Source of the DNA: an uncultured Alphaproteobacteria bacterium
GTDB lineage: Bacteria; Pseudomonadota; Alphaproteobacteria; Rhizobiales; Rhizobiaceae
Length of the DNA stretch: 64,000 nucleotides
Direction of reading: 5' to 3'
Assembly (NCBI GenBank): GCA_963711925.1
Contig: CAVQFY010000007.1
Span: forward strand, 349,601-413,600
Positions 3,943 to 57,370 of the stretch are shown one piece after another. Position numbers and translations under genes: made by a program. Under the pieces are notes generated by a model that had not been told where the DNA came from, searched no databases, and saw nothing but the letters and a program-made list of their open reading frames with translations. Each line of letters begins with the position of its first letter. Position 1 is the stretch's first letter.

Positions 3943-3955
3943 TAATCGAATTCTA

Positions 3956-39501: not shown

Positions 39502-39520
39502 TCGTGAGAGGCGATGCCGA

Positions 39521-39701
39521 TTATCTCCCCCCTTGTGGGGGAGAAAGTGATTTCAGCATCTTAGCACTTGCTAAGTGCTAGAAATCACAAGAGAGGGGAT
39601 TGTTCTGGGGTCAAAAAATCCCCTCACTTGGATTTTCCAAGGATTTAGCAAAGAAGGCTAAATCCAGGAAAATCCTTTCTCTCCCACAAGGGGAGAGATA
39701 A
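39521..39701. repeat. Repeat family A copy 1 (181 bp REPIN/MITE-like)
   Basis: Inverted ends TTATCTCCCCCCTTGTGGGGGAGAAAG...CTTTCTCTCCCACAAGGGGAGAGATAA with three internal hairpins; matches three other copies. Confidence 0.95.
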
Positions 39702-39744
39702 GAGCGGATCCGTCCGCGTGTAATGTGCGACGTTCAACTTACAA

Positions 39745-40788
39745 TTACAGCGCAGGCAATCGTCCGATACCGATAAAGCCAACCGACATTTTGCCGTTCT
39801 TCACCGTAATGGGAAGTGTCGGCGCGCCACTCGCGTCTTTCGGAACGAACGCCATCGCTTGAACAACGGTCGAAATCGTATTGCCTGCTTCAGGGAAGAT
39901 GCCCTGCATGACTTTGGCGACACCTTCCGGATTGCGCATCGTCACCTTGAAATCGCCGCTGATGCGTCCGTCATCGGCGACGGAAAACGGACCGGAAATC
40001 GCAATCCCGCTGCCATCCTCGAAGGACAGTTCGACTTTGCGCAGCGTTCCCGTCTGGCCGCGCAGAACCGACAGGTCACGCTCGGGTTTTGCCAGAAGCG
40101 CGAAACCATTGGCAAGCTGGACATCGGCAGCTCCCGTCAACTCCGGCAATGGCCTGTCGAGGACGATATTGTCGGCGATCTTCAGCTTGTCGAAGGATAG
40201 TGCGATATCCATCTGCGGTTGAGCGGTGTTGAACTCAAGTTTCCCGGTCTGCATGACGGCGAGGGGAACAGGATTGCTCACATTCCCGCGCTCGGTGACC
40301 ATGACATTGCTGCCTTCGATCGACAGTTGTTTCGGAAGCGGTTTGTCGAGCCGGACGCTCGTGGCGAGATTTTCCCATTTCACGTCGAGAGGCGGAGCAC
40401 CGGGCACGTCGACCGCGGCAGGGCCTTCGACGCTGCTAACGATTTTTAGCGGGTCGTAGACTTGTGCCGCGGAACGAAAGCTGCCGGCGGTGATGGATAT
40501 GTTCTTGGCCTGGTCGACCCAGCCGACTTTCGAGCAGTCGAGACCAACGCGCAAAGGATAGCCGCTCGCCCTGGCGTTTTCGCAGGTGGCATCGATACCC
40601 TGCTGCTTGAACGCTGCAATGTTCGTTGCGACCCGGCTCTCGAGCTGATTGGCCAGATAGTACCAGCCGCCGGTGTAGATCACGCCGGCAAGGATAATCA
40701 GTGCGCCGATGATGATCGGAAGTCTCGAAGGCTTGCGGCTCTTTTCGGCAGTGCTTGACGGCATGGGGCGGGTCTCGCTATCGGTCAC
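39745..40788 (-). CDS. DUF2125 domain protein
   Basis: N-terminal TM then GYPLRVGLDC, SFRSAAQVYDP; usual neighbour of chaC/tyrA. Confidence 0.8.
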   Translation of the reverse strand: MTDSETRPMPSSTAEKSRKPSRLPIIIGALIILAGVIYTGGWYYLANQLESRVATNIAAFKQQGIDATCENARASGYPLRVGLDCSKVGWVDQAKNISITAGSFRSAAQVYDPLKIVSSVEGPAAVDVPGAPPLDVKWENLATSVRLDKPLPKQLSIEGSNVMVTERGNVSNPVPLAVMQTGKLEFNTAQPQMDIALSFDKLKIADNIVLDRPLPELTGAADVQLANGFALLAKPERDLSVLRGQTGTLRKVELSFEDGSGIAISGPFSVADDGRISGDFKVTMRNPEGVAKVMQGIFPEAGNTISTVVQAMAFVPKDASGAPTLPITVKNGKMSVGFIGIGRLPAL

Positions 40789-40826
40789 GGGAAGATATTC
40801 AATGAGATCGAGCTATCAGGACGGAT

Positions 40827-41345
40827 ATGGGCGATTTTTGGGTCTTTGGCTACGGCTCTCTGATGTGGAAGCCGGGCTTTGCACATGTGGAGACCTTGCA
40901 CGCCCGGCTGCACGGCTATCGAAGGGCGCTATGTGTCCGCTCCTATGTGCATCGCGGGACGCCGGAGCGGCCAGGGCTGGTGCTCGGCCTTGATCGCGGC
41001 GGATCCTGCCTCGGAATGGCGTTTCGCGTGCCTGGCGATCTCGAGGACGAGGTCGTCGCCTATCTGCGGGCGCGTGAACTGGTCACGCATGTCTATCTCG
41101 AACGACGGCTGGGCATACGGCTCGAAGACGGACGCAAGGTCGAGGCGCTGACCTATATCGTCGACCGCAACCATGTTCAGTATGCGGGCAGGCTTTCCGT
41201 GAGCGAAGCTGCGACGGCTGTGCGCGGCTCAGTGGGTCAATCGGGCCGCAATGAAGACTATGTGCACAGTACGCTCGAGCACATGCACAAGATGAAGATC
41301 CGCGACCACTGGATGGAGGCGGTCGTCGCCGCGGTTGATCGCTAG
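40827..41345 (+). CDS. Gamma-glutamylcyclotransferase (ChaC-like)
   Basis: WVFGYGSLMW, HRGTPERPGLVLGL, LRARE. Confidence 0.92.
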   Translation: MGDFWVFGYGSLMWKPGFAHVETLHARLHGYRRALCVRSYVHRGTPERPGLVLGLDRGGSCLGMAFRVPGDLEDEVVAYLRARELVTHVYLERRLGIRLEDGRKVEALTYIVDRNHVQYAGRLSVSEAATAVRGSVGQSGRNEDYVHSTLEHMHKMKIRDHWMEAVVAAVDR

Positions 41346-41348
41346 GGT

Positions 41349-41468
41349 AGTTCACGCCATGGCGGCCTGCAAACGGCGTTTTTCTGCACTCCGGTGCTCA
41401 CGTACCTCAAAGTACGCTGCGCTCCGGTGCTCGAAAACCACCGTTTTCGCCTCGCCCTGACGTGAATC
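41349..41468. repeat. Repeat family B copy 1 (120 bp, CIR/Bru-RS/RIME-like)
   Basis: TTCACG...CGTGAATC ends, internal direct repeat CTGCRCTCCGGTGCTC flanking CGTAC-N6-GTACG. Confidence 0.9.
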
Positions 41469-41485
41469 CAGACAGGCCCTGCAGC

Positions 41486-42166
41486 CTACAGGCCGGTCGC
41501 TGTATCGACAAAACGGGCGGCGTCATCGCTGGACCAGTCGGCCGGACCGTTCATAGCGGCAATCTGGCAGCCTTCCTTGTCGACAAGCATTGTGACCGGC
41601 AGACCGAAAGCGAGGTTCTTGCGCTTCAGATCGTTGAATACGCCCATCGATGGATCGCGATAGAGCTGCAGCGACTTGACGCCGATCTCGCTCAGGAACG
41701 CCTTCGGCTTCTCGTCGTCGCCCGTATCGATGTTGATGGTCACGACCTGGAAATTGTCGCCGCCCTTCTTCGTCTCCAGCGCATCGAGGGCCGGCATTTC
41801 CTCGCGGCATGGCACGCACCACGTTGCCCACAGATTGACGAGAAGCGTCTTGCCTTTGAAATCGCCGAGGCGGGCAGGCTTTCCATCGGGAGCGGTGAAA
41901 GTCAAAGCCGACATGGATTGAGGTGAATCCGCACCGCGCATGGCCGCAACGGCACCGACGGCGGCCCCGTCTATCTTCTTGGCATCCGCGGTTTTCAAAG
42001 CGCATTGATCGGCGGACGGGTTTGTGCCGGCGACAATATTGCCAGAAGGCCGTTCCATCACGTATACCGCAACCGCACCGGCAAGAATGCCTGCGAGAGC
42101 TGCAGACAGGATGATCTTCCTGCTGTTGTCGCGTGGCGTTTTCTGCGTTTCGTTGCCGTCCGTCAT
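41486..42166 (-). CDS. tlpA: TlpA-family thiol:disulfide oxidoreductase
   Basis: [22 protein letters not shown]-terminal TM anchor. Confidence 0.9.
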
Positions 42167-42201
42167 TTTACTCTTCTCGCTTCTCACCCAAGGCGCTACC
42201 C

Positions 42202-43602
42202 ATGTCCGACAAGAAGAACAGCAATGAAATGTGGGGAGGCCGTTTTGCCTCGGGTCCCGCCGCGATCATGGAAGAAATCAACGCTTCCATCGGCTTCGAC
42301 CAGAAACTCTACGCCCAGGACATTCAGGGTTCGCTTGCCCATGCTGCCATGCTTGCGAAAACCGGCATAATAGCGGCGGACGATCACGACAAGATCGCAA
42401 AGGGCCTGAACACGATATTGTCAGAGATAGAGACGGGAAAATTCACGTTTTCGCGCAAGCTCGAAGACATCCACATGAATATCGAGTCGAGATTGGCCGA
42501 ACTGATCGGCGCACCGGCAGGCCGGTTGCATACGGCGCGCTCGCGCAATGATCAGGTTGCCGTCGATTTCCGCCTCTGGGTGAAGGCGGAATTCGAGAGA
42601 ACGGCGATTGCGCTGAAGAAGCTCATCGAAGCTTTTCTGAAGCGTGCCGAGGAACATGCATCGACCTTGATGCCAGGCTTCACGCATCTGCAGACGGCGC
42701 AGCCCGTCACCTTCGGTCACCACTGCATGGCCTATGTCGAGATGTTCGGCCGCGATTTGAGCCGGGTCCGGGACGCCACCCTCCGCATGGACTATTCGCC
42801 GCTGGGTGCTGCGGCGCTGGCCGGGACGGGTTTCCCGATAGACCGGCACATGACCGCAAAGGCGCTCGGCTTCCGCGAGCCGACCCGCAACTCGCTCGAC
42901 AGTGTTTCGGATCGCGACTATGCGCTGGAGTTCCTTTCGACCGCCGCGATCACCGCGACGCATCTGTCGCGCCTCGCCGAAGAGATCGTCATCTGGTCGA
43001 CGCCGCAGTTCGGGTTCGTGCGCCTGTCCGACAGTTTCTCCACCGGCTCGTCGATCATGCCGCAGAAGAAGAACCCCGATGCTGCCGAACTGGTGCGCGC
43101 CAAGACCGGGCGCATCACCGGCTCGCTGGTCGGTCTCCTGACGGTGATGAAAGGTCTGCCGCTGACCTATTCCAAGGACATGCAGGAAGACAAGGAAGCC
43201 GTCTTCGATGCAGCCGAGACGCTGGAACTATGCATTGCCGCGATGACCGGCATGGTCGGTGATATGACCATCAACAGCGCCGCAATGAAAAAAGCGGCCG
43301 GTTCCGGTTATTCCACTGCGACCGATCTTGCCGACTGGCTTGTACGCGAACTCGGCCTGCCTTTCCGCGAGGCGCATCACGTGACCGGACGCGCAGTGGC
43401 TTTGGCCGAAGAGAGGAAAGCCGAGCTTGGCAAGCTGTCGCTTGAGGATCTGCAGGCGATACATCCCGGCATCACCGATGCGGTGTTCGGTTATCTGACC
43501 GTCGACAAATCGGTGCGCAGCCGCAAATCCTATGGCGGTACGGCGCCGGGCGAGGTTCGCCGCCAGATCAAATTCTGGCAAAAGCGCATCGCAAAACTCT
43601 AA
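42202..43602 (+). CDS. argH: Argininosuccinate lyase
   Basis: [37 protein letters not shown]. Confidence 0.97.
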
Positions 43603-43681
43603 AACATTATTGGCTGGCGATGGGGGTGCAAAGCGCGCCTTCATACGCTAGACAGAGTAAACGCCATTCGGGATCAAACTT

Positions 43682-43867
43682 ATGACGAGCCGTTCTTTTT
43701 TGACGACAATACTGATGTCGATTGCAATTTTAAGCGTTGTTTCGGCTTGTGGCCGAAAGGGCGATCCTGAACTGCCGCCGGCTTCCGTTACGACGATGCC
43801 CGGCGAGCCGAAGACAGAAAAACCACCGGTTCAGGACAAGCGTTTCATCCTTGACCCGTTGATCTAG
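43682..43867 (+). CDS. Small lipoprotein (LptM/YifL-like)
   Basis: Lipobox VSAC-GRKGDPELPP; typical position upstream of lysA. Confidence 0.8.
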   Translation: MTSRSFLTTILMSIAILSVVSACGRKGDPELPPASVTTMPGEPKTEKPPVQDKRFILDPLI

Positions 43868-43875
43868 GCACGTAC

Positions 43876-45141
43876 GTGAACCATTTCGACTATAAAGACG
43901 GCGTTCTCCATGCCGAGGGCGTCAGCATTCCCGACATCGCCAAGGCGGTCGGAACGCCTTTCTATTGCTATTCCACCGCGACGATCGAGCGGCATTTCAA
44001 GGTCTTTTCGGCGGCATTCGCCGATATGGAGACGCTCGTCGCTTACGCGCTCAAGGCCAATTCCAATCAGGCCGTCCTGAAGACGCTGGCTCGCCTCGGT
44101 TCAGGCGCCGACGTGGTTTCCGAGGGCGAGATGCGTCGCGCTCTGGCTGCAGGCATCCCGGCCAACAAGATCGTTTTTTCCGGCGTCGGCAAGAAGCCCG
44201 GCGAAATGGATTATGCGCTGGCCGCAGGAATCCATTGTTTCAACGTCGAATCCGAGCCGGAGCTTGAAATATTGTCCGGGCGCGCGGTTGCTGCCGGCAA
44301 GATTGCGCCGGTATCGCTACGCATAAACCCGGATGTGGACGCCAAGACCCACAAAAAGATTTCCACGGGCAAATCCGAGAACAAGTTCGGCATTCCGCTT
44401 GCGAAGGCCAGCACGATCTATGCGCATGCCGCCAAGCTGCCCGGCCTCAAGGTCACCGGCATCGACATGCATATCGGCAGCCAGATCACCGATCTCGAGC
44501 CGTTCGACAATGCCTTCAGGCTGCTGGCCGAACTGGTGGCGCAGTTGCAGGCAGACGGCCACGATATCAAGCATGTCGATCTCGGCGGCGGCTTGGGCAT
44601 TCCCTATCATTTCGACAATAATCCACCGCCGCTGCCCGATGCCTATGCGCAAATCGTGCAAAAGCATATCAAGCCCCTGGGTCTGAAGACCATTTTCGAA
44701 CCGGGCCGTCTCATCGTCGGCAATGCCGGTATATTGGTCAGCGAGGTGATTTACCTCAAGGAAGGCGATGCGCGGAATTTCATCATCGTCGATGCGGCCA
44801 TGAACGATCTCATCCGTCCGACGCTTTACGACGCCTTTCATATCATCCGTCCGGTCAAGGAGCCTGCGGCCAACGATCCGCGTATTCGCGGCGATGTCGT
44901 CGGTCCGGTTTGCGAAACCGGCGATTATCTTGGCCTCGATCGCGACCTGCCGCGCCCGGCCCCGGGCGATCTCATCGCCATTGGAACGGCAGGCGCTTAC
45001 GGCGCAGTACAGGCCGGCACCTACAACACGCGTCTGCTCGTGCCAGAGGTTCTGGTCAATGGCGACCGGTTCCATGTGGTGCGCCCCAGAACGACCTATG
45101 ACGAGCTGATCGGCTTGGATTCCATCCCTGAGTGGCTTTAG
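43876..45141 (+). CDS. lysA: Diaminopimelate decarboxylase
   Basis: YALKANSN, HIGSQI, DLGGGLG, EPGR, GPVCETGD, GAYG. Confidence 0.97.
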   Translation: MNHFDYKDGVLHAEGVSIPDIAKAVGTPFYCYSTATIERHFKVFSAAFADMETLVAYALKANSNQAVLKTLARLGSGADVVSEGEMRRALAAGIPANKIVFSGVGKKPGEMDYALAAGIHCFNVESEPELEILSGRAVAAGKIAPVSLRINPDVDAKTHKKISTGKSENKFGIPLAKASTIYAHAAKLPGLKVTGIDMHIGSQITDLEPFDNAFRLLAELVAQLQADGHDIKHVDLGGGLGIPYHFDNNPPPLPDAYAQIVQKHIKPLGLKTIFEPGRLIVGNAGILVSEVIYLKEGDARNFIIVDAAMNDLIRPTLYDAFHIIRPVKEPAANDPRIRGDVVGPVCETGDYLGLDRDLPRPAPGDLIAIGTAGAYGAVQAGTYNTRLLVPEVLVNGDRFHVVRPRTTYDELIGLDSIPEWL

Positions 45142-45155
45142 CAAGCGCTGTGCGC

Positions 45156-45333
45156 ATATCTCCCCCCTTGTGGGGGAGAAAGCGATTTCAGCATCTTAGC
45201 CCTCGCTAAGTGCTAGAAATCGCAAGAGAGGGGATTTGCTTCACTGATACTACCCCTCACTTGGATTTTCCAAGGATTTAGCATAGAGGCTAAACCCAGG
45301 AAAATCCTTTCTCTCCCACAAGGGGAGAGATAA
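45156..45333. repeat. Repeat family A copy 2 (178 bp)
   Basis: Same architecture as copy 1; central loop differs. Confidence 0.95.
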
Positions 45334-45486
45334 TCGGCATCAGGCCTCGGCGGAGAGCTCATGCTGCAGGGTCCACCTCTACACAAAACTATGATCGCAT
45401 TTTTACCCCAAGGCCTCGCCTTTGCCATGATGAATGGTATTGTTCTATGATGCCGGCACCGTCGATGCCGGCGAGATGGAGTGCGG

Positions 45487-48055
45487 ATGACCGATCAACA
45501 ACCCGACAAACGGGACGCGATCAGGTACAGGTTCGATATTTTCAAAAGTATCGATCGCCTCCGTTTGTCTACATGGTTGACCGTTGTGTTCGAACGCCTG
45601 TGGCCGCTTGTACTGCCGCTGCTGCTTTCCGTTGCCATTTTCCTGTGCCTGTCCTGGTTCGGTATCTTCCGGATAATTCCGGATGCATTGCGACTGGCAC
45701 TGCTCGGGCTTTTTGCTCTCTCGCTGCCCCTCTGCCTCTATCTCCTGCTGAGATTCCGTCTGCCCGATCACTCGGAAATCAGCCAGCGGCTGGAAAGCGT
45801 CAACACGCTCGATCACCAGCCGATCACCATCCAGTCGGAAGAACTCGTCAACAAGAGCATTGATCCGTTTGCTCAGGCGCTGTGGGACGAACATCGCAAG
45901 CGCATGGCCGAGCGCATCCAGAATTTGAAGAGCGGCCTGCCGCAAACCCGTATTCCGGAACGCGATCCCTGGGCGTTGCGCGGCATTGTCGGCCTGCTTC
46001 TCGTCGTCGCCTTTGCCTTTTCCGGCGGGCCGCTCGGCGGCCGCATCAACGATGCGTTCCGCAGTCATAGCAAGAGCGAAGCCATTCCGCCCCGTATCGA
46101 TGCCTGGGTAACGCCTCCGCGCTATACCGGACGCGCACCGCTCTTCCTGACAGCGGCAGCCAATGACGGAAGAAAAACAGTTCACCATTCCGCAGGACAG
46201 CACGCTTATCGTCCGCATTATCGGCGGCAGCGGATCGGAGAAGGTCACCCAGACGTCGATGGATGGGGAGGCAACCGATATTGCGGCGAAGGACCAAGGC
46301 AAGCCGGAAGACAATCCAACGACTGCCAAAGCCCGGCCGCGTAATTTCGAACTGCCGATCGGTGCCAACAGCACGGTCAGCCTGTCAGATGATGGCAACC
46401 CGCTTGCCGAATGGGCGTTTTCGGTAACGCCCGACCAGCCGCCTTCCGTCCGTTTCACCAAGGATCCTTCCAGCGCTGCCAACGGCACGATGGAGGTTTC
46501 CTACGAAATCAAGGATGATTACGGCGCATCGAGCGCGGTGGCGCAAATCGAGCAGGCATTGCCTGCCGACAAGGATGCGCGACCGCTCTTCAAGGCGCCA
46601 GACCTGCCTCTGGCGCTGCCGCGGCGCGGCGATCAGCCCAAGGAAACCACGACCACCAAGGATCTCACCGAGCATCCATGGGCTGGTTCCGAAATTCGTA
46701 TGACCCTGGTCGCGACCGATGATGCGAAACAGGAAGCCAGAAGCGAAACCAAGACGTTCGTCATGCCCGAACGCCCCTTCGCCAACCCGCTGGCCAAGGC
46801 TGTCGTGGAAGAGCGTCGCATCCTGGCGCTCAACGCCAATGCCAAGCCGCAAGTGCTCGATATGCTGGATGCGATCACCATCTGGCCGGAAGAGACTATC
46901 AAGAACGCGTCTCATTACCTCGCTTTGCGCAGCGTGCGCTCGCGGCTCAATCTTGCGCGCAGCGACGACCAGTTGCGCGACGTCGTCGCCTATATGTGGC
47001 AAGTCGCGCGTGGCATCGAGGACGGCGCTCTTTCGGACGCCGAGCGTCGCCTGCGTCAGGCGCAGGAAGCCTTGAAGCAAGCGATCGAACAGGGTGCAAG
47101 CCCGGAAGAAATCGAAAAGCGCATGAAAGAGCTGCGCAGCGCCATGAACGAGTATCTGCGCGAATTTGCCCAGAAAGCCCAGAAGAACCCGAATATGGCT
47201 CAAATGCCAAATCCCAACGCGATGGAACTGCGGCAGGAGGATATAGACCGCATGCTCGACCGCATCGAGGATCTGGCCAAGCAGGGTGCGAAGGACCAGG
47301 CGCAGCAACTGCTTTCCGAACTCGAAAACATGATGAACAATCTGCAGATGGGCCAGCAGCAGCAAAATCAGCAGGGCCAAGGTCAGATGCGACAGCAGAT
47401 GGACAAGCTGGGCGAATTGATGCGGCGCCAGCAGGAGATGATGAACCAGACCAACCGGCTTGAGCAACAGCGTCAGAACGGCATGCAGCAGGACCAGGGC
47501 CAGAGCCAGCAGGGTCAAAATGGCCAGGAGGGTCAGCAAGGCCAGATGTCCGAAGAGGATATCGCCAAGGCCCTGCGCGGCCTTCAGGAAGGCCAGGGCA
47601 AGCTGCAGTCGGATCTCGAGCAAATGATGAAGGATTTGAAGGGGCTCGGCATCAATCCCGGTGAAGGGTTCGGCGATGCCAACAAGTCCATGGGCCAGGC
47701 AGGAAAGGCGCTGGGCGATGCGGATGGCGGCCAGGCGGTTGACCGGCAGAGCAATGCGCTCGATGCCTTGCGCCGCGGCGGGCAGGACATGATGAAACAG
47801 ATGCAGCAGGCCATGGGTCAGGAAGGCCAGACTGGCGGACCCAATGGACAGCAGCAGCAAAATGGCAGGCTCGATCCGCTGGGACGCCAACGTTCCAGGG
47901 GAGATTTCTTCGACGACTCCAAGAATATCGTCCCCAAAGATCTGGATATTCAGCGGGCGCGCGAAATCCTGGACGAAATCCGCAAGCGCCTCGGCAATGC
48001 GCTGAGCCCGCAGATGGAAAAAGACTATCTGGAGAGATTGCTGAAGTTCGATTGA
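45487..48055 (+). CDS. TIGR02302 / DUF4175 family membrane protein, apparent +1 frameshift near 46169-46177
   Basis: FERLWP, RDPWALR, DAWVTPPRYTG then KDDYG, DLTEHPWAG, Gln-rich tail, DYLERLL. Confidence 0.85.
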
Positions 48056-48070
48056 GACCGCGGATGCCGA

Positions 48071-48252
48071 TTATCTCTCCCCTTGTGGGAGAGAAAGCGA
48101 TTTCAGCATCTTAGCCCTTGCTAAGTGCTAGAAATCGCAAGTGAGGGGATTTTACTTTGTGCGCTCCAAATCCCCTCTCTTGGCTTTTCTAAGGATTTAG
48201 CGAAGAGGCTAAATCCAAGAAAATCCTTTCTCCCCCACAAGGGGGGAGATAA
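48071..48252. repeat. Repeat family A copy 3 (182 bp)
   Basis: Same architecture; between convergent TIGR02302 and hpt. Confidence 0.95.
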
Positions 48253-48272
48253 GAGCAGTTACCACCGGGCTT

Positions 48273-48809: not shown

Positions 48810-48904
48810 GCAGTTCTTCCTGATTGAGAGCCCGTTTGGAAACTTTACTTTCCAAGGGTTCTGACCGATATGCAATTGCTATAGCCCGATCGCTGCCTGG
48901 AAAT

Positions 48905-49285
48905 CTAGCGTGCCAGTTCGCTCTTGTGACCGACCGAACCGGTGGTCAGCATCGGATCGTCAGCGGGCGACGTTCCGGACAATAATGTGTGGCCGCCGGT
49001 TATCCAGAAGACCGAAACCGCAACCAAAGCCACCACAAGCCAATAGCCGAAGCCCGGCCCCTTCAGTTCCGTGCTTTCGCGCGCATGCAATATCGTCATC
49101 GCTTCATCGCTGGGCAACAGGCGTTGCCATGTCTCAGCCCCAGCCTCCTTGGTGACAGGACCGCGCGCCAATGTCTCGAAATCGACATCCTCCGCACCAC
49201 CTTTGTCGATGGAAGGCACAGCATTCAAACTCAGATTATCTTTAGGTTCCATTGTATCGATCTTTGCAAAATACGGTTTTGGCAT
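48905..49285 (-). CDS. Hypothetical membrane protein
   Basis: AEDVDFETL motif and C-terminal TM segment; start uncertain. Confidence 0.55.
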   Translation of the reverse strand: MPKPYFAKIDTMEPKDNLSLNAVPSIDKGGAEDVDFETLARGPVTKEAGAETWQRLLPSDEAMTILHARESTELKGPGFGYWLVVALVAVSVFWITGGHTLLSGTSPADDPMLTTGSVGHKSELAR

Positions 49286-49439
49286 CGTCTGCCCTCATGC
49301 AGACAATTTTTTCCGAATCATAGGACAGCCTATCCCACAAAAATTAATGTTTTGGCCGATGCCTGGCTGCGTTTGATGGGTGGCCAAATCCGTCCACACA
49401 AAATAGAACACGCATGGACACGAGATTGGAAAGTTACGC

Positions 49440-50099
49440 TTGATTCGCTTTGAGAATGTCGGTTTGCGATACGGAATGGGCCCGGAGGTTCTGCGTGATG
49501 TCAGCCTCCATATTTCACCGCGGTCGTTCCAGTTCCTGACCGGCCCGTCGGGTGCCGGAAAGACGTCGCTGCTGCGCCTGTTGTTCATGACGCTGAAGCC
49601 GACGCGCGGCCTGATAAACGTCTTTGGCAAGGATATCGCCACGATCTCGTCGAAGGAAATGCCGCTGCTGCGGCGCCGTATTGGCGTGGTTTTCCAGGAT
49701 TTCCGTCTGCTCGACCACATGACCACCTATCAGAATGTAGCACTGCCGCTGCGTGTGCGCGGCAAGGAGGAGGCGACCTATCGCGCCGAAGTCGAAGAGC
49801 TTCTCGACTGGGTTGGCCTCGGCGAGCGCATGCATGTGCTGCCGCCTGTCCTTTCCGGGGGCGAGAAGCAGCGCGCGGCAATCGCGCGGGCCTTGATCGA
49901 TCAACCTGAAATTCTGCTTGCCGATGAGCCGACCGGCAATGTCGATCCGCCGCTGGCGAGGCGCCTGCTTCGGCTTTTCGGCGAGCTGAACCGCTCGGGC
50001 ACGGCGGTTGTCATCGCGACGCATGATCTGACGCTGATGGACCAGATCAATGCGCGGCGCATGATCCTCGATCAGGGGAGGCTCGACATTTATGATTGA
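49440..50099 (+). CDS. ftsE: Cell division ATP-binding protein FtsE
   Basis: GPSGAGKTS, IGVVFQDFRLL, LSGGEKQR, ADEPTGNVD; TTG start. Confidence 0.93.
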   Translation: MIRFENVGLRYGMGPEVLRDVSLHISPRSFQFLTGPSGAGKTSLLRLLFMTLKPTRGLINVFGKDIATISSKEMPLLRRRIGVVFQDFRLLDHMTTYQNVALPLRVRGKEEATYRAEVEELLDWVGLGERMHVLPPVLSGGEKQRAAIARALIDQPEILLADEPTGNVDPPLARRLLRLFGELNRSGTAVVIATHDLTLMDQINARRMILDQGRLDIYD

Positions 50100-51091
50100 T
50101 GCCGCCCGTATCAAGTATCTGGCGCTCGACCTGTTTGGCCGTGCCATGGAGCGCTTTCAGGCCAAGAGCGGGCAGGCGCCAATCGTGCCCGCCGGCAATG
50201 TCGTTGGCCACGCCCTGATGATCGTCATCGCCATCATGACTTTCCTCGCCTGCCTTACCATTGGTGCAGTCAGTCTCGTCCAGTCGACGGCCGCGACGTG
50301 GCAGAGCCAGATTTCGACCGAGGCCACAATCCAGATACGTCCGGTCGAGGGCCAGGACATGGAGGCGCTGCTTAATCAGGCGAGCTCTATAGCGCAGGGT
50401 TTTGCCGGAGTGAAATCAACGCGCATCATCGACCGTGCCGCGACCGAGCGTCTGCTGGAACCGTGGCTTGGAAGCGGTCTCGATATTGACGAGCTGCCGG
50501 TGCCAAGGCTGGTGATCGTCACGCTCGACGAAGCTTCGCCGCCGGATTTCGCCGGCAATTCGCGCGGCGCTGGTCAAGGACGTTCCGGGCGCCAGTTTCG
50601 ACGATCATCGCAACTGGGTCGACCGGCTCGTTTCCATGGCGCGTTCGACGGTCCTGATCGGCATGGCGGTGCTCGCACTCGTCGTCGCAGCGACTGTGCT
50701 AACGGTTATTTTCGCGACGCGTGGCGCAATGGCCGGCAACGGACATATCATCGAGGTTCTGCATTTTATCGGTGCCGACCAGAATTTCGTTGCGCGTCAG
50801 TTCGAGCGGCATTTCTTCTGGACGGCGCTCAAGGGTGCCGCTTGCGGCGGGGCGCTTGCCATCATCATTTTCCTGTGTATCGGCTGGTGGTCGTCGCATA
50901 ATCTGGCGACGCCCGAGGCAGATCAGGCGACGGCGCTCTTCGGCAATTTTTCCATTGGGTCAGGTGGCTATACGGGCGTTGTTCTTATCATATTGGCGGT
51001 CAGCATCCTGACCATGATAACAACAAGAATGACGGTCATAGCGCATTTGAGACGGGTTGACGGTCGCAGCGGCGAAAGTCACGAAACCTGA
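50092..51091 (+). CDS. ftsX: Cell division permease FtsX, apparent +1 frameshift near 50551-50556
   Basis: Follows ftsE; EATIQIRP, LPVPRLV then IIEVLHFIGA; removing one base restores DFAAIRAALVKDVP. Confidence 0.85.
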
Positions 51092-51163
51092 TGCCATTTC
51101 ATTCATTTTAATATCCGGATTGTACAAAAGCTGAGCCCCGGCACTCTTTATTAGACAGAACAA

Positions 51164-51178
51164 GAACAAACCTCGAAC
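51164..51178. promoter_or_regulatory. Candidate alphaproteobacterial LexA (SOS) box
   Basis: GAAC-AAACCTC-GAAC (GAAC-N7-GAAC) 19 nt upstream of the YdcF-like start. Confidence 0.45.
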
Positions 51179-51197
51179 AAGGCATTTTTGATCCATC

Positions 51198-51896
51198 ATG
51201 GGCGGCGCAAACGACAGCAATCAACCAGGGACAGCCGCTCTAACCCGCGGCGGACGGCTGCTCGCGTTCATCCGCAGGCGCATCGTGCTGCCGCTGTTCA
51301 TCGTCTGCGTTCTCGGTCTCGTCCTGTTCATCGGCGGGTTCATTCTCTTTGCCGATCGCGTCACGACTCTGGAGGCACCGGACCTTACCCGGCCTGCCGA
51401 TGGGATCATCGTGTTGACCGGCGGTTATTCCCGGATCGAAGGGGCGCTCGATCTCCTCAAGAACAAGCGCGGCGAACGCCTGTTCATCAGCGGCGTGCAT
51501 CCAACGACCAATCGCAATGAATTGCAGCGTGTGACGGGCGGCGACGCCACCCTGTTCGAATGCTGCGTCGATATCGACCGCTCGGCGCTGGATACGGTCG
51601 GCAATGCGGCCGAGAGCGTCAAGTGGGCCCATTCGAACCAGTACAAGCGGGTGATCGTGGTCACCAACAACTACCATATCCCCCGCACGATGGTGGAACT
51701 CCGGCGCGTCTCGCAGGACATCGAATTCATCCCCTATCCGATTATCAACACCAACCTGCGCGACGGCGACTGGATTTCCCGCGGTCTGGTGGTCCGGGTG
51801 CTTCTGGTCGAATATATGAAATATCTTGGTGCTGAAGTTCGCTCGCATCTCCCCGATAGCCTGTTCGGGCTCAAGCTTGGCGCGAAGACTTTTTGA
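51198..51896 (+). CDS. YdcF/DUF218 family protein
   Basis: DGIIVLTGG..RI, LFISGVH, DTVGNA, VVTNNYHIPR. Confidence 0.88.
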   Translation: MGGANDSNQPGTAALTRGGRLLAFIRRRIVLPLFIVCVLGLVLFIGGFILFADRVTTLEAPDLTRPADGIIVLTGGYSRIEGALDLLKNKRGERLFISGVHPTTNRNELQRVTGGDATLFECCVDIDRSALDTVGNAAESVKWAHSNQYKRVIVVTNNYHIPRTMVELRRVSQDIEFIPYPIINTNLRDGDWISRGLVVRVLLVEYMKYLGAEVRSHLPDSLFGLKLGAKTF

Positions 51897-51963
51897 GAGT
51901 TCACGGCAAGGCTACATTGGTATACGAAGGCGCAGGCCAACCTTATCCCGAGTCCTGACCTAA

Positions 51964-52743
51964 ATGACGATCATTCGATCAATCGCCTTCAACACACTCT
52001 TCTATCTGAATTTGATCATCCGGATGATCATCTTCACGCCCTATTATTTCTTGAGCCCGCGCAAGCAGGCGTGGAGTGTTCCTAAAAACTGGGCGAAATC
52101 GAACCTGTGGCTGCAAAAGGTGATCATCGGCGCAGACGTCCACATCGATGGGCTGGAGAATATTCCGGACGGTCCGTACATCTGTGCGCCGAAGCACCAG
52201 TCCTTCTGGGACACCTATGCCTTCCTGCCGCACATCGCCGATCCGGTCTATATCCTCAAGCGGGAGCTGACCTGGATACCGTTGTTCGGCTGGTACATTC
52301 AGAAAATGAAAATGGTGCCGATCGATCGCGGCAAGCGTTCCGCGGCCATGAAAGTGGCGGTCAAGGGTGCGCGCGAAGCTGTCGCCGGAGGCCGGCAGCT
52401 GATGATTTATCCTGAGGGCACACGTACCGCGCCGGGTGCGCCGCCGCATTACAAATACGGCGTCGCGCATATCTATGGCGAACTCGGTGTGCCCGTCGTT
52501 CCGATTGCCCACAATGCCGGGCTCTATTGGCCGCGCCGCAAGTTCATGCGCTATCCCGGCGTCATCCGCTGCCGCATTCTGCCGCCGATCCAGCCGGGTC
52601 TCGACAATGACGCGTTTTTGAAGAAGCTCGAAGAGGTCACCGAAGCGGCTTGCGACGAGCTTCTGATCGAAGCAGCGAAGTCCGACAATCCGCCGCCCAT
52701 GCCGCCAACGGCGGTGAAGCGGCTGAAAGAACTCGGCGTCTAG
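51964..52743 (+). CDS. plsC: 1-acyl-sn-glycerol-3-phosphate acyltransferase
   Basis: KHQSFWD (HX4D), IYPEGTR, VPVVPIA. Confidence 0.9.
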   Translation: MTIIRSIAFNTLFYLNLIIRMIIFTPYYFLSPRKQAWSVPKNWAKSNLWLQKVIIGADVHIDGLENIPDGPYICAPKHQSFWDTYAFLPHIADPVYILKRELTWIPLFGWYIQKMKMVPIDRGKRSAAMKVAVKGAREAVAGGRQLMIYPEGTRTAPGAPPHYKYGVAHIYGELGVPVVPIAHNAGLYWPRRKFMRYPGVIRCRILPPIQPGLDNDAFLKKLEEVTEAACDELLIEAAKSDNPPPMPPTAVKRLKELGV

Positions 52744-52751
52744 GGCCCGTC

Positions 52752-52781
52752 GATGTTCACGCGCTGACGGCCTGCAAACGC
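52752..52781. repeat. Left-end fragment of repeat family B
   Basis: GTTCACGCGCTGACGGCCTGCAAACG matches first ~30 nt of both full copies. Confidence 0.7.
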
Positions 52782-52817
52782 CGCCGCTGAGCCTATTCCT
52801 GGGTTAACACCAGGCAT

Positions 52818-52850
52818 AAAAAAAGCTCCATCGTGAGATGGAGCTTCTTT
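52818..52850. terminator. Bidirectional intrinsic terminator between plsC and helicase
   Basis: A-run, aagctccatc-gtga-gatggagctt stem, then cttt. Confidence 0.8.
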
Positions 52851-52871
52851 AGATTATGCGAACGCGCTGAA

Positions 52872-54801
52872 TTACTCAGCTCCTCCCGCTGCGGCTTTCC
52901 GTGCCTTCTTGGCTTTGTACTTGTCAAAGCCATGCAGTTCGCCTGGTTTGCGTTCTTTTGGTGTTTTCTTCGGCTTTTCAGGCTTTTCTGTGGTCCAGCC
53001 TTCCGGCTTCGCCTTGGCTGGCTTGGCCGCCCAATCGGTCCTGGGCTTCTCATCATTGGAGCGCGGCTTGCGATTGTCGAATTCACGCTTCTCGCCGAAT
53101 TGCTTCTTCGGCTTGAAGTCGCCGCCCTCAGTGCGACGCGGCGAGGAAGGGCCTGCGCCTTCGCTGCGGGTGATGTTCACGCCCTTTTCGCCGGAACCGA
53201 ACTGCTTGATCCGCGCCATGAAGGCATCGGCCTTGCTGGCGGTGATTTCGAAGCGCGTCTCCGTCTCGAGGATCTTGATCGAGCCGACATCGGTCTTGGT
53301 GATATCGCCCGCCTTGCAGATCAGCGGCAGGAGCCAGCGCGGCTCGGCGCGCTGCTTGCGGCCAACGCTCAAGGAAAACCATGCGCCGCTTTCGAACTGT
53401 TCGAAACGATCCGAGCGCGACGTGCGCTCGCCGCGGCCCGGGCGATCCTCGAAGCTGCCTTTGCGGATCGGTTCGAGGACATGCGACGGCGTGTTGGAGA
53501 GTTCTTCCGGGGCAGGGCGCGCAGCCATCTGCTGGCGCAGATAGGCAGCGGCGATCTGTTCGGCAGAATGCAGGCCGAGCAATTCGGCTACATATACCGG
53601 CCTCTTCCTCGCTCACGACTTCCGTCAAGGAAGGATCGTTGAGAATGCGGTCATGGTTGCGCTTGTTGATGGCATCGGCATCCGGCGGTGGCACCATGGT
53701 CGTCGACAGCTTGGCGCCCTGCAACAGGCGCTCGGCGGTGCGGCGGCGCGATGCCGGCACGATCAATACGCAGATGCCCTTGCGCCCGGCGCGTCCGGTG
53801 CGGCCGCTGCGATGCAGAAGCGTCTCGGAATTGTTCGGCAGGTCGGCGTGGATAACGAGGTCGAGATTGGGCAGATCGATACCGCGCGCCGCAACATCGG
53901 TTGCAACGCAGACACGGGCACGGCCATCGCGCATCGCCTGCAGGGCGTTGGTGCGCTCGGCCTGGCTGAGTTCGCCCGAAAGGGAAACGACGGAAAAGCC
54001 GCGATTGGACAGGCGGCTGGTCAGGTGCTTCACCGCTTCGCGGGTCGAGCCGAAAATGATGGTGTTTTGCGCATCGTAGAAGAGCAGGGAATTGATGATG
54101 GCGTTTTCGCGCTCACGCGGCGCCACCGGCATGATGTGATATTCGATATCCGCATGCTGCTCGCGGTCGCTCGTGGCGGAAATGCGCAGGGCGTCTTTCT
54201 GGAACTGCTTGGCAAGCAAGGCGATGGGTTTTGGTACCGTCGCCGAGAACATCAGGGTGCGGCGGTCTTTGGGCGCTTCGCCGAGAATAAATTCGAGGTC
54301 TTCGCGGAAACCGAGATCGAGCATCTCGTCGGCTTCATCGAGGACGACTGCGCGCAGTTCCTTCATGTCGAGCGAACCGCGGGTGATATGGTCGCGCAAA
54401 CGGCCGGGTGTACCGACGACGATATGCGCGCCCTGTTGCAGCGCGCGGCGCTCCTTGGTCATGTCCATGCCGCCAACGCAGGAGGCAATGCGCGCGCCGG
54501 TCGGCTCGTAGAGCCATTCGAGTTCGCGCCGAACCTGCAGTGCCAGTTCGCGCGTCGGGGCGATGACCAGTGCGTAAGGTGCGCCAATGGATGTGAAGCG
54601 GTTTTCGCCTTCAAGCAAGGTCGGTGCGATGGCGATACCGAAGGCGACAGTCTTGCCGGATCCAGTCTGGGCGGAGACCAGAAGGTCGGCGCCCTCGGCT
54701 TCCGGAGCCAGAACAGCGGTCTGCACCGGCGTCAGGGTCTCGTAGCCACGGGCTGCCAATGCACCGGACAACGCCGGGGCGATAGAATCAAAAATAGTCA
54801 T
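52872..54801 (-). CDS. DEAD-box RNA helicase (DeaD/CsdA-like, DbpA domain), apparent +1 frameshift near 53596-53601
   Basis: AQTGSGKT, PTRELA, DEADE, SAT, HRSGRTGRAG; DbpA-type domain in next frame. Confidence 0.9.
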
Positions 54802-54951
54802 CAATGAACTTTCAGTGCTGGTTTGGGCGTGTGGTTGGCTCGGCGTCAATGGGAGCACGAGCGGCACGCATGTAGCTTTGTTGCGCTCTCGTAGAGCCTG
54901 CGACGCGTTCCGTCAATGCCAAGAAACGCATAGCTCCCATCCGCACTCCCG

Positions 54952-55428
54952 TCAGGAGGTGAAGCCCGCACGTTTCAAACGCACAATAGCGAGGTCGAGC
55001 GCGGAAAGAAAGCTCGAACGATCTTTCGATGAAAACGGCCGTGGACCGCCGGTGATCTGCCCGGCGGAGCGCAGTTCGTCCATGAGATTGCGCGTTGCGA
55101 GCGTGTTGCCGATGGAGGCTTCGGTAAAGGCTCGCCCGGTCGGCGAAATGGCGTCGGCCCCGGCTTTGACGCAACGGCTGGCGAGCGGGATGTCCGCCGT
55201 CACCACGACATCGCCGCGCGAGACACGCTCCGCGATCCAGTCGTCAGCTGCGTCGAAACCATCGCTGACGATGACACGCTCGATCATCGGATCGCGCGGA
55301 ATCGCCATCATCGAGTTGGAGACGACGAAGACCTTGACGCCATAACGCTCGGCAACGCGGTAAACTTCCGCCTTGACCGGGCAGGCATCGGCGTCGACAT
55401 AGATTGTGATCTTTTTCTGTTCAGTCAT
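54952..55428 (-). CDS. YaiI/YqxD (UPF0178) family protein
   Basis: [27 protein letters not shown]. Confidence 0.92.
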
Positions 55429-55430
55429 AT

Positions 55431-56054
55431 TTATCCAAAAATGTGCAGGGCCGCGAGACCGACCGAGGCGCCGAGCCCGATGGCGATGCCTGCGGCAAGC
55501 GCTGCCACCAAAAGGCCTGTTCCAAGCCAGACGCCATCCTGTTCGCCAAGGCCGATGGCCAAAAGGACAATGCTGAGCGCCGGCAGCTGATTGATGAGCG
55601 GGACCGGCAGGATGACAATCAGCGACATCAGCAGCGCGACGATGCTGACGACACGCTCGACGATCATTTGCGGAACGAACCAATAGCGCGGGCGTGCCAG
55701 CTTTTCAAAGCGAACGAGCATGGGCTCCAGCCTTGCAATGAACCTGCGATACGTTTCGACCTGCATGGATTTGCGCCGCATGAAGGCCGGAAACCACGGT
55801 TTTTCAAAGCCGAGCAGCATCTGGATCGAGAGCAGCACCAGCGGAATGCCGAAGATCGTGGAAGTGCCCGGAGGAAGCGGCACAAGATTGAGCGCCGCAA
55901 AAAGAATCATCAGCGCGCCGAAACTGCGTTCAGACAAGGCGTCAAGAATGTCGTCGAACGATATTCTTGACGCAGGATCCGCGCCGATCTCGACAAGTAC
56001 TTTGGACAAGCGCCGCGTATCCGGATCGTACGGCGTGCTATCGTCGCCGCTCAT
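55431..56054 (-). CDS. exoD: ExoD family membrane protein
   Basis: [30 protein letters not shown]. Confidence 0.88.
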
Positions 56055-56057
56055 CGA

Positions 56058-56177
56058 TATTCACGCTGTGACAACCTGCAAATGGCGTTTTTCTGCGCTC
56101 CGGTGCTCACGTACCTTAAAGTAGGCTGCACTCCGGTGCCCGAGAACCACCATTTTCGTCGCGTCATGGCATGAATC
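56058..56177. repeat. Repeat family B copy 2 (120 bp)
   Basis: Colinear with copy 1, same length, ends in CATGAATC. Confidence 0.9.
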
Positions 56178-56201
56178 TCAACAGTCATGCGTGGAGGACA
56201 T

Positions 56202-57083
56202 TCAGCGCGTCGGAACGGGATGTTCGCCGCGATAATCATAGAAGCCGCGGCCGGCCTTGCGTCCAAGCCAACCGGCCTCGACATATTTTACCAGGAGCGG
56301 GCAGGGGCGATATTTGGAATCCGCCAGGCCGTCATACAGTACCTGCATGATCGACAGGCAGGTATCGAGGCCGATGAAATCGGCCAGCTGCAACGGCCCC
56401 ATGGGGTGATTGGCGCCGAGTTTCATCGCGGTATCGATGGCATCGACCGAGCCGACGCCCTCATAGAGCACGTAAATCGCTTCGTTGATCATCGGCAAAA
56501 GGATGCGATTGACGATGAATGCCGGAAAATCCTCGGATACGGTAATGGTTTTGTCGAGGCTTGCGACAAATTCCCGGGCACTTTCGAATGTGACGTTCTC
56601 TGTTGCGATGCCGCGAATAAGCTCGACCAGATGCATCACCGGAACCGGATTCATGAAGTGAATGCCGATGAATTGTTCCGGGCGATCGGTGGTCGCAGCA
56701 AGGCGTGTGATCGATATCGATGAGGTATTGGTGGCGAGAATGGCTTCCGGATTGAGGTTTGGACAAAGCTGCGCGAAAATCTTGCGTTTTACGGTCTCAT
56801 CTTCCGTGGCTGCCTCAATAGCAAGATCGACACCGGAAAGGTCCTCCATCCGCAAGGCCGGACGGATACGCGACATTCCCTTGACGCGCTCCGCTTCCTC
56901 GAGCTTGCCGTGGGATACCTGGCGGGCCATGTTGCCGTTAACGGTGGCGAGCGCCTTTTCGATCTGCTCGGCCGACTGGTCATGGATCAAAACATCGTAT
57001 CCAGCCAAAGCGCAGACATGTGCAATACCGCTGCCCATCTGCCCTGCGCCAACAATGCCTACGGTCTTGATCGAGCCTGCCAT
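56202..57083 (-). CDS. hbd: 3-hydroxybutyryl-CoA dehydrogenase
   Basis: VGAGQMGSG, IEAATE, TNTSS, HFMNP, HPMGPL. Confidence 0.93.
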   Translation of the reverse strand: MAGSIKTVGIVGAGQMGSGIAHVCALAGYDVLIHDQSAEQIEKALATVNGNMARQVSHGKLEEAERVKGMSRIRPALRMEDLSGVDLAIEAATEDETVKRKIFAQLCPNLNPEAILATNTSSISITRLAATTDRPEQFIGIHFMNPVPVMHLVELIRGIATENVTFESAREFVASLDKTITVSEDFPAFIVNRILLPMINEAIYVLYEGVGSVDAIDTAMKLGANHPMGPLQLADFIGLDTCLSIMQVLYDGLADSKYRPCPLLVKYVEAGWLGRKAGRGFYDYRGEHPVPTR

Positions 57084-57125
57084 GTTTCCATCCGCTTTTT
57101 TTATGAATATATCACACAAACTAAA

Positions 57126-57156
57126 TGGCCGGGGTAGCGTTCGTCTACCCCGGCCA
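57126..57156 (-). terminator. Probable terminator of etfBA
   Basis: tggccggggtag-N7-ctaccccggcca perfect 12-bp stem followed by U-rich stretch on minus strand. Confidence 0.65.
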
Positions 57157-57170
57157 AGCAAAAATGCTGA

Positions 57171-57351
57171 TTATCTCCCCCCTTGTGGGGGAGAAAGCGA
57201 TTTCAGCATCTTAGCCCTTGCTAAGTGCTAGAAATCGCAAGAGAGGGGATAGTGGATGATGGCTTCAAATCCCCTCTCTTGGATTTTCTAAGGATTTAGC
57301 GAAGGGCTAAATCCAAAAAAATCCTTTCTCTCCCACAAAGGGGAGAGATAA
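57171..57351. repeat. Repeat family A copy 4 (181 bp)
   Basis: Same architecture; between etfA stop and the hairpin at 57126. Confidence 0.95.
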
Positions 57352-57370
57352 CGCTGCGGCTTTTGAAAAT

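Follow-up and report, generated by a model that had tools for sequence, protein, structure and literature searches.

The window, a stretch of 64,000 nucleotides, carries four copies of family A, a gene-less palindromic intergenic repeat of ~180 bp, and the coordinates and sequences noted earlier for these copies proved exact on re-checking. Copy 1 (39522..39703, + strand) is flanked by convergent genes, displays five hairpins and bears an optional outer extension, GATGCCGAT (39513-39521); its loop, TGTTCTGGGGTCAAAAA (39601..39617, + strand), constitutes the apex of hairpin 3 and is directly preceded by GAGGGGAT at 39593-39600. Copy 2 (45157..45335, + strand), which is also flanked by convergent genes, carries an outer extension on its right side (ATCGGCATC), and its loop, TTGCTTCACTGATACT (45236..45251, + strand), is a member of the genus's commonest loop lineage. 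Copy 3 (48072..48254, + strand; loop TTTACTTTGTGCGCTCCAA at 48151..48169, + strand) is similarly located between convergent genes; its hairpins 1 and 5 contain compensatory changes from C-G to T-A. Copy 4 (57172..57353, + strand) lies between two minus-strand genes; it comprises hairpins H1 (57174-57194), H2 (57197-57238), H4 (57281-57324) and H5 (57328-57347), together with an H3 stem in which 57239-57250 is paired with 57269-57281 around the loop AGTGGATGATGGCTTCAA (57251..57268, + strand). All four are thus versions of one five-hairpin element of ~180 nt with arms of ~89% identity and centres of 16-19 nt that are unalignable. The flanking GATGCCGAT and ATCGGCATC were considered as a target site and discounted, as they are missing at empty sites and represent an optional outer part of the inverted repeat.

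Each element consists of two inverted modules of ~80 nt; its halves are inverted repeats, and it matches its own reverse strand. At the outer end of a module stands a CTCCCC-N4-GGGGAG hairpin (H1 or H5), followed inward by a second hairpin (H2 or H4) and then by a GAGAGGGG / CCCCTCTC arm; pairing of the two module arms forms hairpin 3, with the loop as the apex spacer between the modules. Over 38 diverse copies this five-hairpin model left 96.2% of cells paired, compared to ~55% in slid controls, while 20 pairs were changed on both sides and none of 500 shuffles reached the model's pairing. The single-stranded DNA fold of one copy was calculated at -59.6 kcal/mol (z = -11.2). An RNA strand-bias test of the wobble pairs identified no excess of G-U over A-C (21 versus 34), and an Rfam search of the window at gathering threshold returned only a tRNA and ar14, with no family on the elements. 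The sequencing runs that hold the region are DNA metagenomes only.

An nhmmer search of the 5.2-Mb genome (G000) identified approximately 17 full and three to four partial copies of family A, and 12-13 of 19 copies are situated between convergent genes, 10-40 nt past the stop codons. The most similar arms among these copies are 0.956 identical, and no near-identical copy pairs are present. Searches for the Y1 transposase domain (Y1_Tnp, the RAYT domain; PF01797) returned no match either here or in any of 31 genomes belonging to the genus, the control genomes being positive, and DUF559 has no match in this genome. As neither DUF559, a Y1 transposase nor a near-identical copy pair is found here, the resident copies, which lie just after stop codons and mostly between convergent genes, are most likely immobile relics. 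Only one pair of left and right halves in this genome, at C10:538526 and C10:540521, is spaced more widely than a loop would allow, and it was assessed as a potential long copy; these halves, 1.8 kb apart, are two separately truncated copies, and the genes between them (encoding an ECF sigma factor, an anti-sigma factor and a small secreted protein) are not a cargo.

Among 14 clean copies of this genome the mean identity of the arms is 0.892, and that of the loops is 0.501 versus 0.473 +/- 0.061 for shuffled sequences, which upholds the initial observation that the loop differs in all four window copies inside conserved arms. Arm and loop identities are uncorrelated (Spearman -0.11). As loop identity is barely above random and no such correlation exists, simple descent with drift is not visible within this genome, only in a wider sample. 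Some loop pairs of this genome are nonetheless clearly related, with up to 0.81 identity, as in TTGCTTCACTGATACT / TTGCAACCATGATACT / CTGCAATCATCGTAGT and in AGTGGATGATGGCTTCAA / AGTGTATTATGGATTCAAAT. The constant loop length that had been noted holds for the four window copies but not across 94 sampled copies, in which the segment from GAGGGG to CCCCTC ranges from 11 to 41 nt (median 21). The loops of these 94 copies fall into mutational series. A TTGC.TCA.TG-type loop is present in 15 of the 94, from many species, and in the relative G011 at least ten copies with different flanks have one loop in common (TTGCYTCACTGAACT, TTGC(T/C)TCACTGAACT). Within the TTGC...ACT series the loops diverge to ~55% identity while the arms remain ~90% identical, contradicting the proposition of the sequence-only reading that point mutation could not give rise to such loops.

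Comparison of the window sites with those of relatives revealed that the loop is retained with the element. The copy 1 ortholog in G011 exhibits no difference in 160 arm positions and three in its 21-nt centre, and G008 possesses the same element and the same loop as copy 4 (one of 22 positions differs), this element being absent in four other relatives. The copy 2 orthologous site is empty or occupied by a different palindromic family in other species; a paralogous segment, 86% identical, is found at C10:793259-794056. The copy 3 site is empty in G016, holds another repeat family in G002 and G013 and carries a 600-nt insertion in G011; loops related to that of copy 3, with the ...GCTCCAA end, are present in other species. 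Six orthologous comparisons with sister genomes gave 5 differences in 132 loop positions, 34 in 961 arm positions and 107 in 1217 positions of the 100-nt flanks, such that arms (3.5%) and loops (3.8%) change at about equal rates. Constraint on the arms is therefore deduced from the long-term pattern and not from the resident copies. Unrelated loops inside similar flanks and arms were encountered at two sites: that of copy 2, as compared among G000, its C10 paralog and G010, and that at C5:146441, as compared between G000 and G010. These cases call for independent insertions at a hot spot, for saturation or for loop replacement. The loop is not a slot that gets refilled.

Long copies in which an ORF takes the place of the loop, the existence of which had been raised as a point to check, were indeed found in sister species. 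At least four other Phyllobacterium genomes carry an intact DUF559 ORF (a Vsr-fold, PD-(D/E)XK nuclease) exactly between both family A arms, i.e. Phyllobacterium sp. 628, sp. YR531, sp. K27 and P. sophorae (two loci, one also in sp. A18/5-2; the two-armed loci are labelled L222, L223, L224, L225 and L001/L220). In sp. 22229, sp. SB3 and Ca. P. onerii the DUF559 ORF lies against one identifiable arm. Overall, a DUF559 ORF is located within ~300 nt of family A units in 9 of 117 loci fetched through the repeat. The gene at the apex is ~380 nt long, its product matches PF04480 (E = 1.7e-37) and PDB 3HRL (3e-21), and catalytic-type residues are invariant among the Phyllobacterium DUF559 proteins. 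The cassette of sp. 628 (~610 nt) behaves as a unit, G000 and three other genomes having no such cassette at the orthologous site. No site was found at which a long copy in one genome has a short copy as its ortholog in another, three long-copy sites being empty or otherwise occupied in this genome. Furthermore, no direct repeats indicative of target-site duplication were seen at the junctions, and filled and empty sites differ by replaced segments rather than by clean insertions.

Since the DUF559 gene occupies the same apex in sister Phyllobacterium genomes, family A is read as a miniature, non-autonomous form of the cassette. The loop is probably an unconstrained apex spacer, and family A a gene-less miniature of a hairpin-flanked DUF559 cassette. 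The loop is copied faithfully at each spread of the element and subsequently changes freely by point mutation and small indels, both of which steps the sampled copies display; the hairpins and arms would be kept because folding or recognition depends on them, as covariation and long-term conservation suggest. The four window copies would represent members of four old loop lineages. By analogy, family A may relate to the DUF559 cassette as a MITE does to an IS or a REPIN to a RAYT. The sequence-only reading had itself described what a simply unconstrained loop would look like, and loops in a mutational series, retained at orthologs and without an excess of genome matches, were largely what was found, with the exception that gene-containing copies do exist.

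That reading had preferred other roles for the loop, and the possibility that it is a functional variable segment, i.e. a guide or a foreign-DNA spacer displayed on a structured RNA, draws its only support from the conserved arms and unique centres of the four window copies. Loop 13-mers were matched elsewhere in the genome in 15 of 142 cases, compared to 9.6 +/- 4.2 for shuffles, and these scattered matches do not exceed chance. As the loops are inherited with the element (an identical loop recurring at at least ten loci), are kept at orthologs, form a mutational series and lack any match excess, both the guide-like segment and the captured sequence are rejected. Additionally, the wobble pairs carry no strand bias pointing to RNA, Rfam provides no match, and no array, adjacent effector gene or acquisition machinery accompanies the elements, which are scattered after stop codons. 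A functional role of this type is consequently barely credible, and family A likewise differs from CRISPR-like or guide-bearing repeats in that its copies are solitary after stop codons, one 'spacer' occurs at many loci and genome matches are not in excess.

More serious, though still unlikely, is the alternative that every loop lineage began as a deletion scar, with DUF559-bearing long copies giving rise to short ones by repeated, separate internal deletions, so that the loops would be remnants of the gene's leader and tail, unrelated from birth. Long copies with an ORF exactly at the loop position do exist in the genus, in agreement with the earlier suggestion of a lost internal endonuclease gene, and this scenario would accommodate loops of 11-41 nt that are near-random to each other, without arm-loop correlation, between arms that are 89% alike. 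A few loop ends even resemble cassette ends (e.g. ATTTGGAGAG and the leader ATTGAGAGATC of the P. sophorae copy). However, when loop ends were compared with the ends of DUF559 cassettes, neither of two tests was significant (mean local score 6.80 versus 6.64 +/- 0.15; anchored score 3.60 versus 3.42 +/- 0.26, with 75 of 300 shuffles as high), and the remnant status of the loops thus gained no backing; moreover, at least one large lineage exhibits gradual loop divergence with no new deletion, and the sites compared include no orthologous long/short pair. Less probable again is a remodelled or replaced apex, whether because the tip of the hairpin or cruciform is cut and repaired or because ectopic gene conversion homogenises the arms and halts at the heterologous loop, with turnover faster than mutation would permit. 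The two sites with unrelated loops described above and the uncorrelated arm and loop identities are compatible with such a process, as is a neighbouring repeat family with a central segment that is inverted between species. In other genera many half copies also break off exactly at the hairpin 3 left arm, with ~40 of the 57 partial hits ending at model positions 72-93, but this sample is biased because loci were fetched through a left-half pattern. Against this alternative, the loops were as stable as the arms in the six orthologous comparisons, and identical loops persist at many paralogous loci.

If the loop is an unconstrained spacer, its variability is in itself ordinary, as for the free spacer of other palindromic repeats such as REPINs, the spacer of which 'shows less conservation' than the REPs themselves (Bertels and Rainey 2011, PMC3116915). 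Like family A, the REPIN/RAYT system consists of two inverted conserved units around a less conserved spacer with a long hairpin fold, is extragenic, leaves singlet (half) units as remnants and includes a single-copy nuclease-type gene flanked by the same units. Unlike it, family A is partnered by a Vsr-fold DUF559 protein instead of a Y1 (HUH) transposase, which is lacking in this genome and in 31 genomes of the genus; its units measure ~80 nt with two hairpins each, as opposed to 20-40 nt for REPs, and in its long copies the gene takes the spacer's place within the doublet. IS-derived MITEs (e.g. Correia or ERIC-type) similarly measure <200 bp, possess terminal inverted repeats and long stem-loop potential, occur as many dispersed copies with presence/absence polymorphism between species, and have a longer gene-bearing form with the same ends, here the DUF559 ORF between the halves. 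They rely, however, on a transposase and target-site duplication, neither of which was seen for family A, where the internal gene encodes a Vsr-fold nuclease and filled and empty sites differ by replaced segments. RIME1 and RIME2, attributed to Osteras et al. in 1995, are reportedly rhizobia-limited intergenic repeats of ~108 bp with two large palindromes, among them the S. meliloti / NGR234 elements of the chvI-chvG spacer. In size and layout these and the Sm-repeats of S. meliloti would correspond to one family A half unit. A blastn search with a family A half against a plasmid collection including S. meliloti replicons matched only a Rhizobium sp. and P. zundukense and no S. meliloti, and sequence identity with RIME is therefore unlikely. 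RIME1/RIME2 and Sm-repeats are cited as repeats of unknown function (PMC2573895).

The terminal hairpin of family A (CTCCCCCC-TTGT-GGGGGGAG), together with a G-rich block (GAGAGGGG) mirroring the purine arm of the hairpin, bears a likeness to the TMECO consensus CCCTCNCCC-N3-6-GGGNGAGGG-N3-GGGNGAGGG of the BoxC or PIT intrastrand-triplex repeats (Holder et al. 2015, PMC4666352), and both are intergenic, without strand bias and with loops less conserved than stems. Family A departs from the consensus, which has three homopurine or homopyrimidine tracts in succession with loops of 3-6 nt: its first two blocks are joined by a 4-5-nt loop, but the third block, GAGAGGGG, lies ~50 nt off behind H2 or H4 and not 3 nt away. 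Published work found no mobile gene associated with these repeats (PMC4666352). Such motifs do adjoin the DUF559 genes of E. coli and S. meliloti. To our knowledge, no enzyme is known for the spread of G/C-rich palindromic repeats, namely BoxC/PIT in enterobacteria and the mosaic repeats of rhizobia, and the present findings bear both on what spreads them and on the role of DUF559 / YcjD-type proteins. A single genus offers a compact, testable system in this respect, comprising short copies, long ones that carry an intact DUF559 gene at the corresponding apex, sites without the element and genomes devoid of the nuclease. Tentatively, and with considerable doubt, family A and its long form may constitute one mobile system not yet in print, in which an apex-borne Vsr-fold DUF559 nuclease would recognise either the C/G hairpins or the GAGGGG/CCCCTC arms, in folded or duplex form, and would drive the copying of cassette and gene-less miniatures alike into intergenic sites. 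Were this so, it would represent a REPIN/RAYT-like partnership on a different nuclease fold, with the unexplained E. coli BoxC/PIT repeats and rhizobial palindromic repeats as its kin, and the present genome, which has 17 miniatures but lacks the nuclease, would amount to a natural knock-out. Beyond the genus, and also in other phyla, C/G hairpin inverted repeats resembling the BoxC type bracket DUF559 genes in S. meliloti, Sphingomonas and Deinococcus, and one-sided C/G hairpin repeats lie beside DUF559 in Shinella, Sinorhizobium, Azospirillum, Methylobacterium and E. coli.

Family A is present in the window as four copies of approximately 180 nt (copy 1, 39522-39703; copy 2, 45157-45335; copy 3, 48072-48254; copy 4, 57172-57353), and a profile search of the source genome (G000; 5.2 Mb, 56.7% G+C, 11 contigs) identified approximately 17 full and three to four partial copies. 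The genome is assigned to Phyllobacterium, in part through an exact-pattern scan of named genomes. Convergent genes flank 12-13 of 19 copies, at a distance of 10-40 nt past the stop codons. The element as a whole is an imperfect palindrome of five hairpins in a chain, i.e. H1 (CTCCCCCC-TTGT-GGGGGGAG), H2 (42 nt), H3 (CAAGAGAGGGGAT - loop - ATCCCCTCTCTTG), H4, and H5, which mirrors H1. Pairing under this model was 96.2% across 38 diverse copies, a value matched by none of 500 shuffles (slid controls were approximately 55% paired), and both-side changes were observed at 20 base pairs of the model (e.g. C-G to U-A at columns 7/20 and 195/207), including complete pair exchanges in H4. Folding of one copy as single-stranded DNA yielded -59.6 kcal/mol (z = -11.2). 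G-T pairs (21) were not commoner than A-C pairs (34) and therefore provide no pointer to an RNA of one strand; additionally, an Rfam search returned no family matching family A. At three G000 copies on contig C10 (642513-642691, 1179901-1180109 and 540340-540380), a further small palindrome (GGCGGGCGAGACCCGTGGCTCGCCC) splits H1 or H5 or stands in its place, so that family A has a mosaic character.

The loops described in the sequence-only reading were exact in coordinates and letters for all four window copies, and the contrast between conserved arms and dissimilar loops was reproduced throughout G000, where arms are on average 0.892 identical while loops are 0.501 identical (0.473 for shuffled loops). 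Arm and loop identity are uncorrelated among these copies. A reading of the loop as a slot that can be refilled, as a captured spacer or as a guide was not borne out by comparison with relatives. Across 22 central positions, copy 4 and its counterpart in the relative G008 show a single difference, against approximately 20% divergence in their flanks; copy 1 and its G011 counterpart differ at three of 21 central positions, and the loops of the copies at C7:415480, C7:426524 and C5:128068 are identical or nearly so in G011, G013 and G009. Summed over six orthologous comparisons, differences amounted to 5/132 in loops, 34/961 in arms and 107/1217 in flanks. Furthermore, the loop travels with the element: at least ten copies in G011 with unrelated flanks bear TTGC(T/C)TCACTGAACT, a loop that is also found in copies of G006 and of many named species and that represents 15 of 94 sampled copies, window copy 2 belonging to this type. 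The 94 sampled loops fall into series joined by single changes (for example TTGCTTCACTGAACT, TTGCCTCGCTGAACT, TTGCATCACTCGACT, TTGCAATCATCTTACT, CTGCAATCATCGTAGT and TTCCAATCATCTTAAT). The supposed constant length of the loop did not hold, as the 94 copies have central segments of between 11 and 41 nt. Matches of the loops to host sequence were not in excess (15 of 142 13-mers, against 9.6 +/- 4.2 for shuffles), the longest matches elsewhere in the genome being scattered 13-15-mers. Since loops are kept at orthologs, spread with the element, form series and show no excess of matches, neither a slot, a capture nor a guide is supported. The loop is an apex spacer between two inverted modules, inherited and drifting. 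In resident orthologs, arms and loops diverge about equally fast; that the arms have stayed conserved over the long term would therefore fit selection between replicating lineages better than a function that each copy serves for the host.

At two sites, alike junctions enclose unrelated loops. Family A with similar junctions and unrelated loops occupies the copy 2 site in G000, in its paralogous segment on C10 and in the relative G010, and the same applies to the C5:146441 site when G000 is compared with G010. Window 44850-45650, which spans copy 2 and the ends of the genes on its two sides, is duplicated at 86% identity in the paralogous segment (C10:793259-794056); the arms of copy 2 and its paralog are alike while their loops are unrelated. 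Saturation is a possible explanation at the copy 2 site, since the neutral spacer beside family A is as unalignable as the loop. At both sites, replacement of the centre may be responsible, or the loops may reflect independent insertion into a hot spot. Insertion hot spots do exist: a single intergenic site bears, depending on the species, family A, a different palindromic family, a solo hairpin remnant or nothing.

A second repeat family of approximately 125 nt (TTTTCTGCGCTCCGGTGCTCACGTACC...GCTCCGGTGC.CGAGAACCACC.TTTTCG) is located at window 41351-41475 and 56060-56184 (82% identical to each other), and in other Phyllobacterium species it occupies intergenic sites that bear family A in G000. 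A third palindromic family (CCCTCCCCCTTGTGGGGAGGG ..., approximately 170 nt) is found at the copy 2 or copy 3 sites of relatives (loci L120, L122, L123, L124, L126, L154 and L155). Its central segment is inverted in G011 relative to G002 and G013 at the copy 2 site, and in G002 relative to G013 at the copy 3 site, a pattern suggestive of a flip-flop of the segment lying between the inverted arms of this family. In G016, a solo terminal hairpin or end fragment (e.g. GATTATCTCTCCCTTGTAGGAGAGATAATC) is present at three loci (L160, L173 and L180) where G000 has full copies; these look like what a deletion running between H1 and H5 would leave. In G011, the site of copy 3 (L153) has the element's left end (GATGCCAATTATC) and after it an insertion of approximately 600 nt, within which a 126-aa ORF has no Pfam match.

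DUF559-like ORFs were located within approximately 300 nt of family A units at 9 of 117 loci retrieved from other genomes. The ORFs near family A belong to DUF559 (PF04480, E = 1.7e-37; closest solved relative 3HRL, E = 3e-21) and have invariant D, ExD, QH, RD and RFWN-E residues. Long copies with both arms were identified in Phyllobacterium sp. 628, sp. YR531, sp. K27 and P. sophorae, in the layout H5'-H4'-GAGAGGGGAT - leader - DUF559 - tail - ATCCCCTCTCTTG-H2'-H1', which reads as a complete family A element on the other strand with its loop replaced by a putative nuclease-coding segment of approximately 380 nt. The apex occupied by the loop in short copies thus holds a DUF559 gene in sister genomes, and in some long copies the reading frame terminates within the arm. 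Other arrangements comprise a form whose halves are both of the H2 type (P. sophorae and sp. A18/5-2), a gene in opposite orientation beside armR-H4-H5 (sp. 22229), a DUF559 gene whose 3' end abuts one half of family A (sp. SB3 and Ca. P. onerii), and various layouts in which half or full units enclose DUF559 (Rhizobium, Pararhizobium and other MAG loci). G000, G006, G011 and P. sophorae all lack the cassette of sp. 628 (approximately 610 nt) at the orthologous position, and therefore the whole unit comes and goes. Many partial copies at loci from other genomes terminate precisely at H3's left arm, in a sample of half copies biased towards left halves as loci were retrieved via the H2 pattern.

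The expectation of long copies with an ORF in place of the loop was accordingly realised in other Phyllobacterium genomes and not in G000, where genome searches found neither a DUF559 gene nor a Y1 transposase and where no copies with separated halves were found. The sole candidate long copy in G000 proved to consist of a pair of truncated copies, one on either side of a sigma/anti-sigma operon. In place of a DUF559 cassette found in P. sophorae and sp. A18/5-2, G000 carries an unrelated insert of approximately 790 nt (C5:140118-140906), the first ORF of which, judged by eye, encodes a putative Phd/YefM-type antitoxin.

We infer that family A may represent a miniature version of the DUF559 cassette, in which case the arms and hairpins would be what the putative nuclease, or the copying process, requires, and the G000 copies would be relics. 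Comparison of filled with empty sites shows segments that have been replaced, with no target duplications. Each loop lineage might have begun as a separate deletion scar, in line with the earlier suggestion of a deleted internal gene; two tests of similarity between loops and cassette ends, based on only eight long copies, were not significant.

REPINs consist of conserved inverted units around a less conserved spacer (Bertels and Rainey, PMC3116915), an organisation shared by family A, which resembles REPINs and MITEs in the way it works yet fails the RAYT test by which REPINs are defined. Family A also shares the C/G hairpin and mirrored G block of BoxC/PIT/TMECO repeats, whereas its third block lies approximately 50 nt off, behind an extra hairpin. 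The BoxC/TMECO study reported no associated mobile gene (PMC4666352). A PD-(D/E)XK survey places DUF559 in a group with Vsr and a homing nuclease (PMC3424549), and DUF559 is enriched among predicted inversion targets (PMC9881135). As regards the RIME1/2 repeats, a family A half unit matched no S. meliloti record in a collection containing S. meliloti replicons. Hairpin inverted repeats of the CCCTCCCC-N4-GGGGAGGG type enclose DUF559 in S. meliloti (repeat arms of 114 nt), Sphingomonas and Deinococcus, and similar repeats lie on one side of DUF559 in Shinella, Sinorhizobium, Azospirillum, Methylobacterium and E. coli, the E. coli repeat being BoxC-like. On a Sphingomonas parapaucimobilis plasmid (L213), DUF559 with 33-nt hairpin inverted repeats lies between sufB and sufC, within a conserved operon. 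Unrelated to family A, an Rfam match to the alphaproteobacterial sRNA ar14 (64 bits) is located on the minus strand at window 3837-3947.
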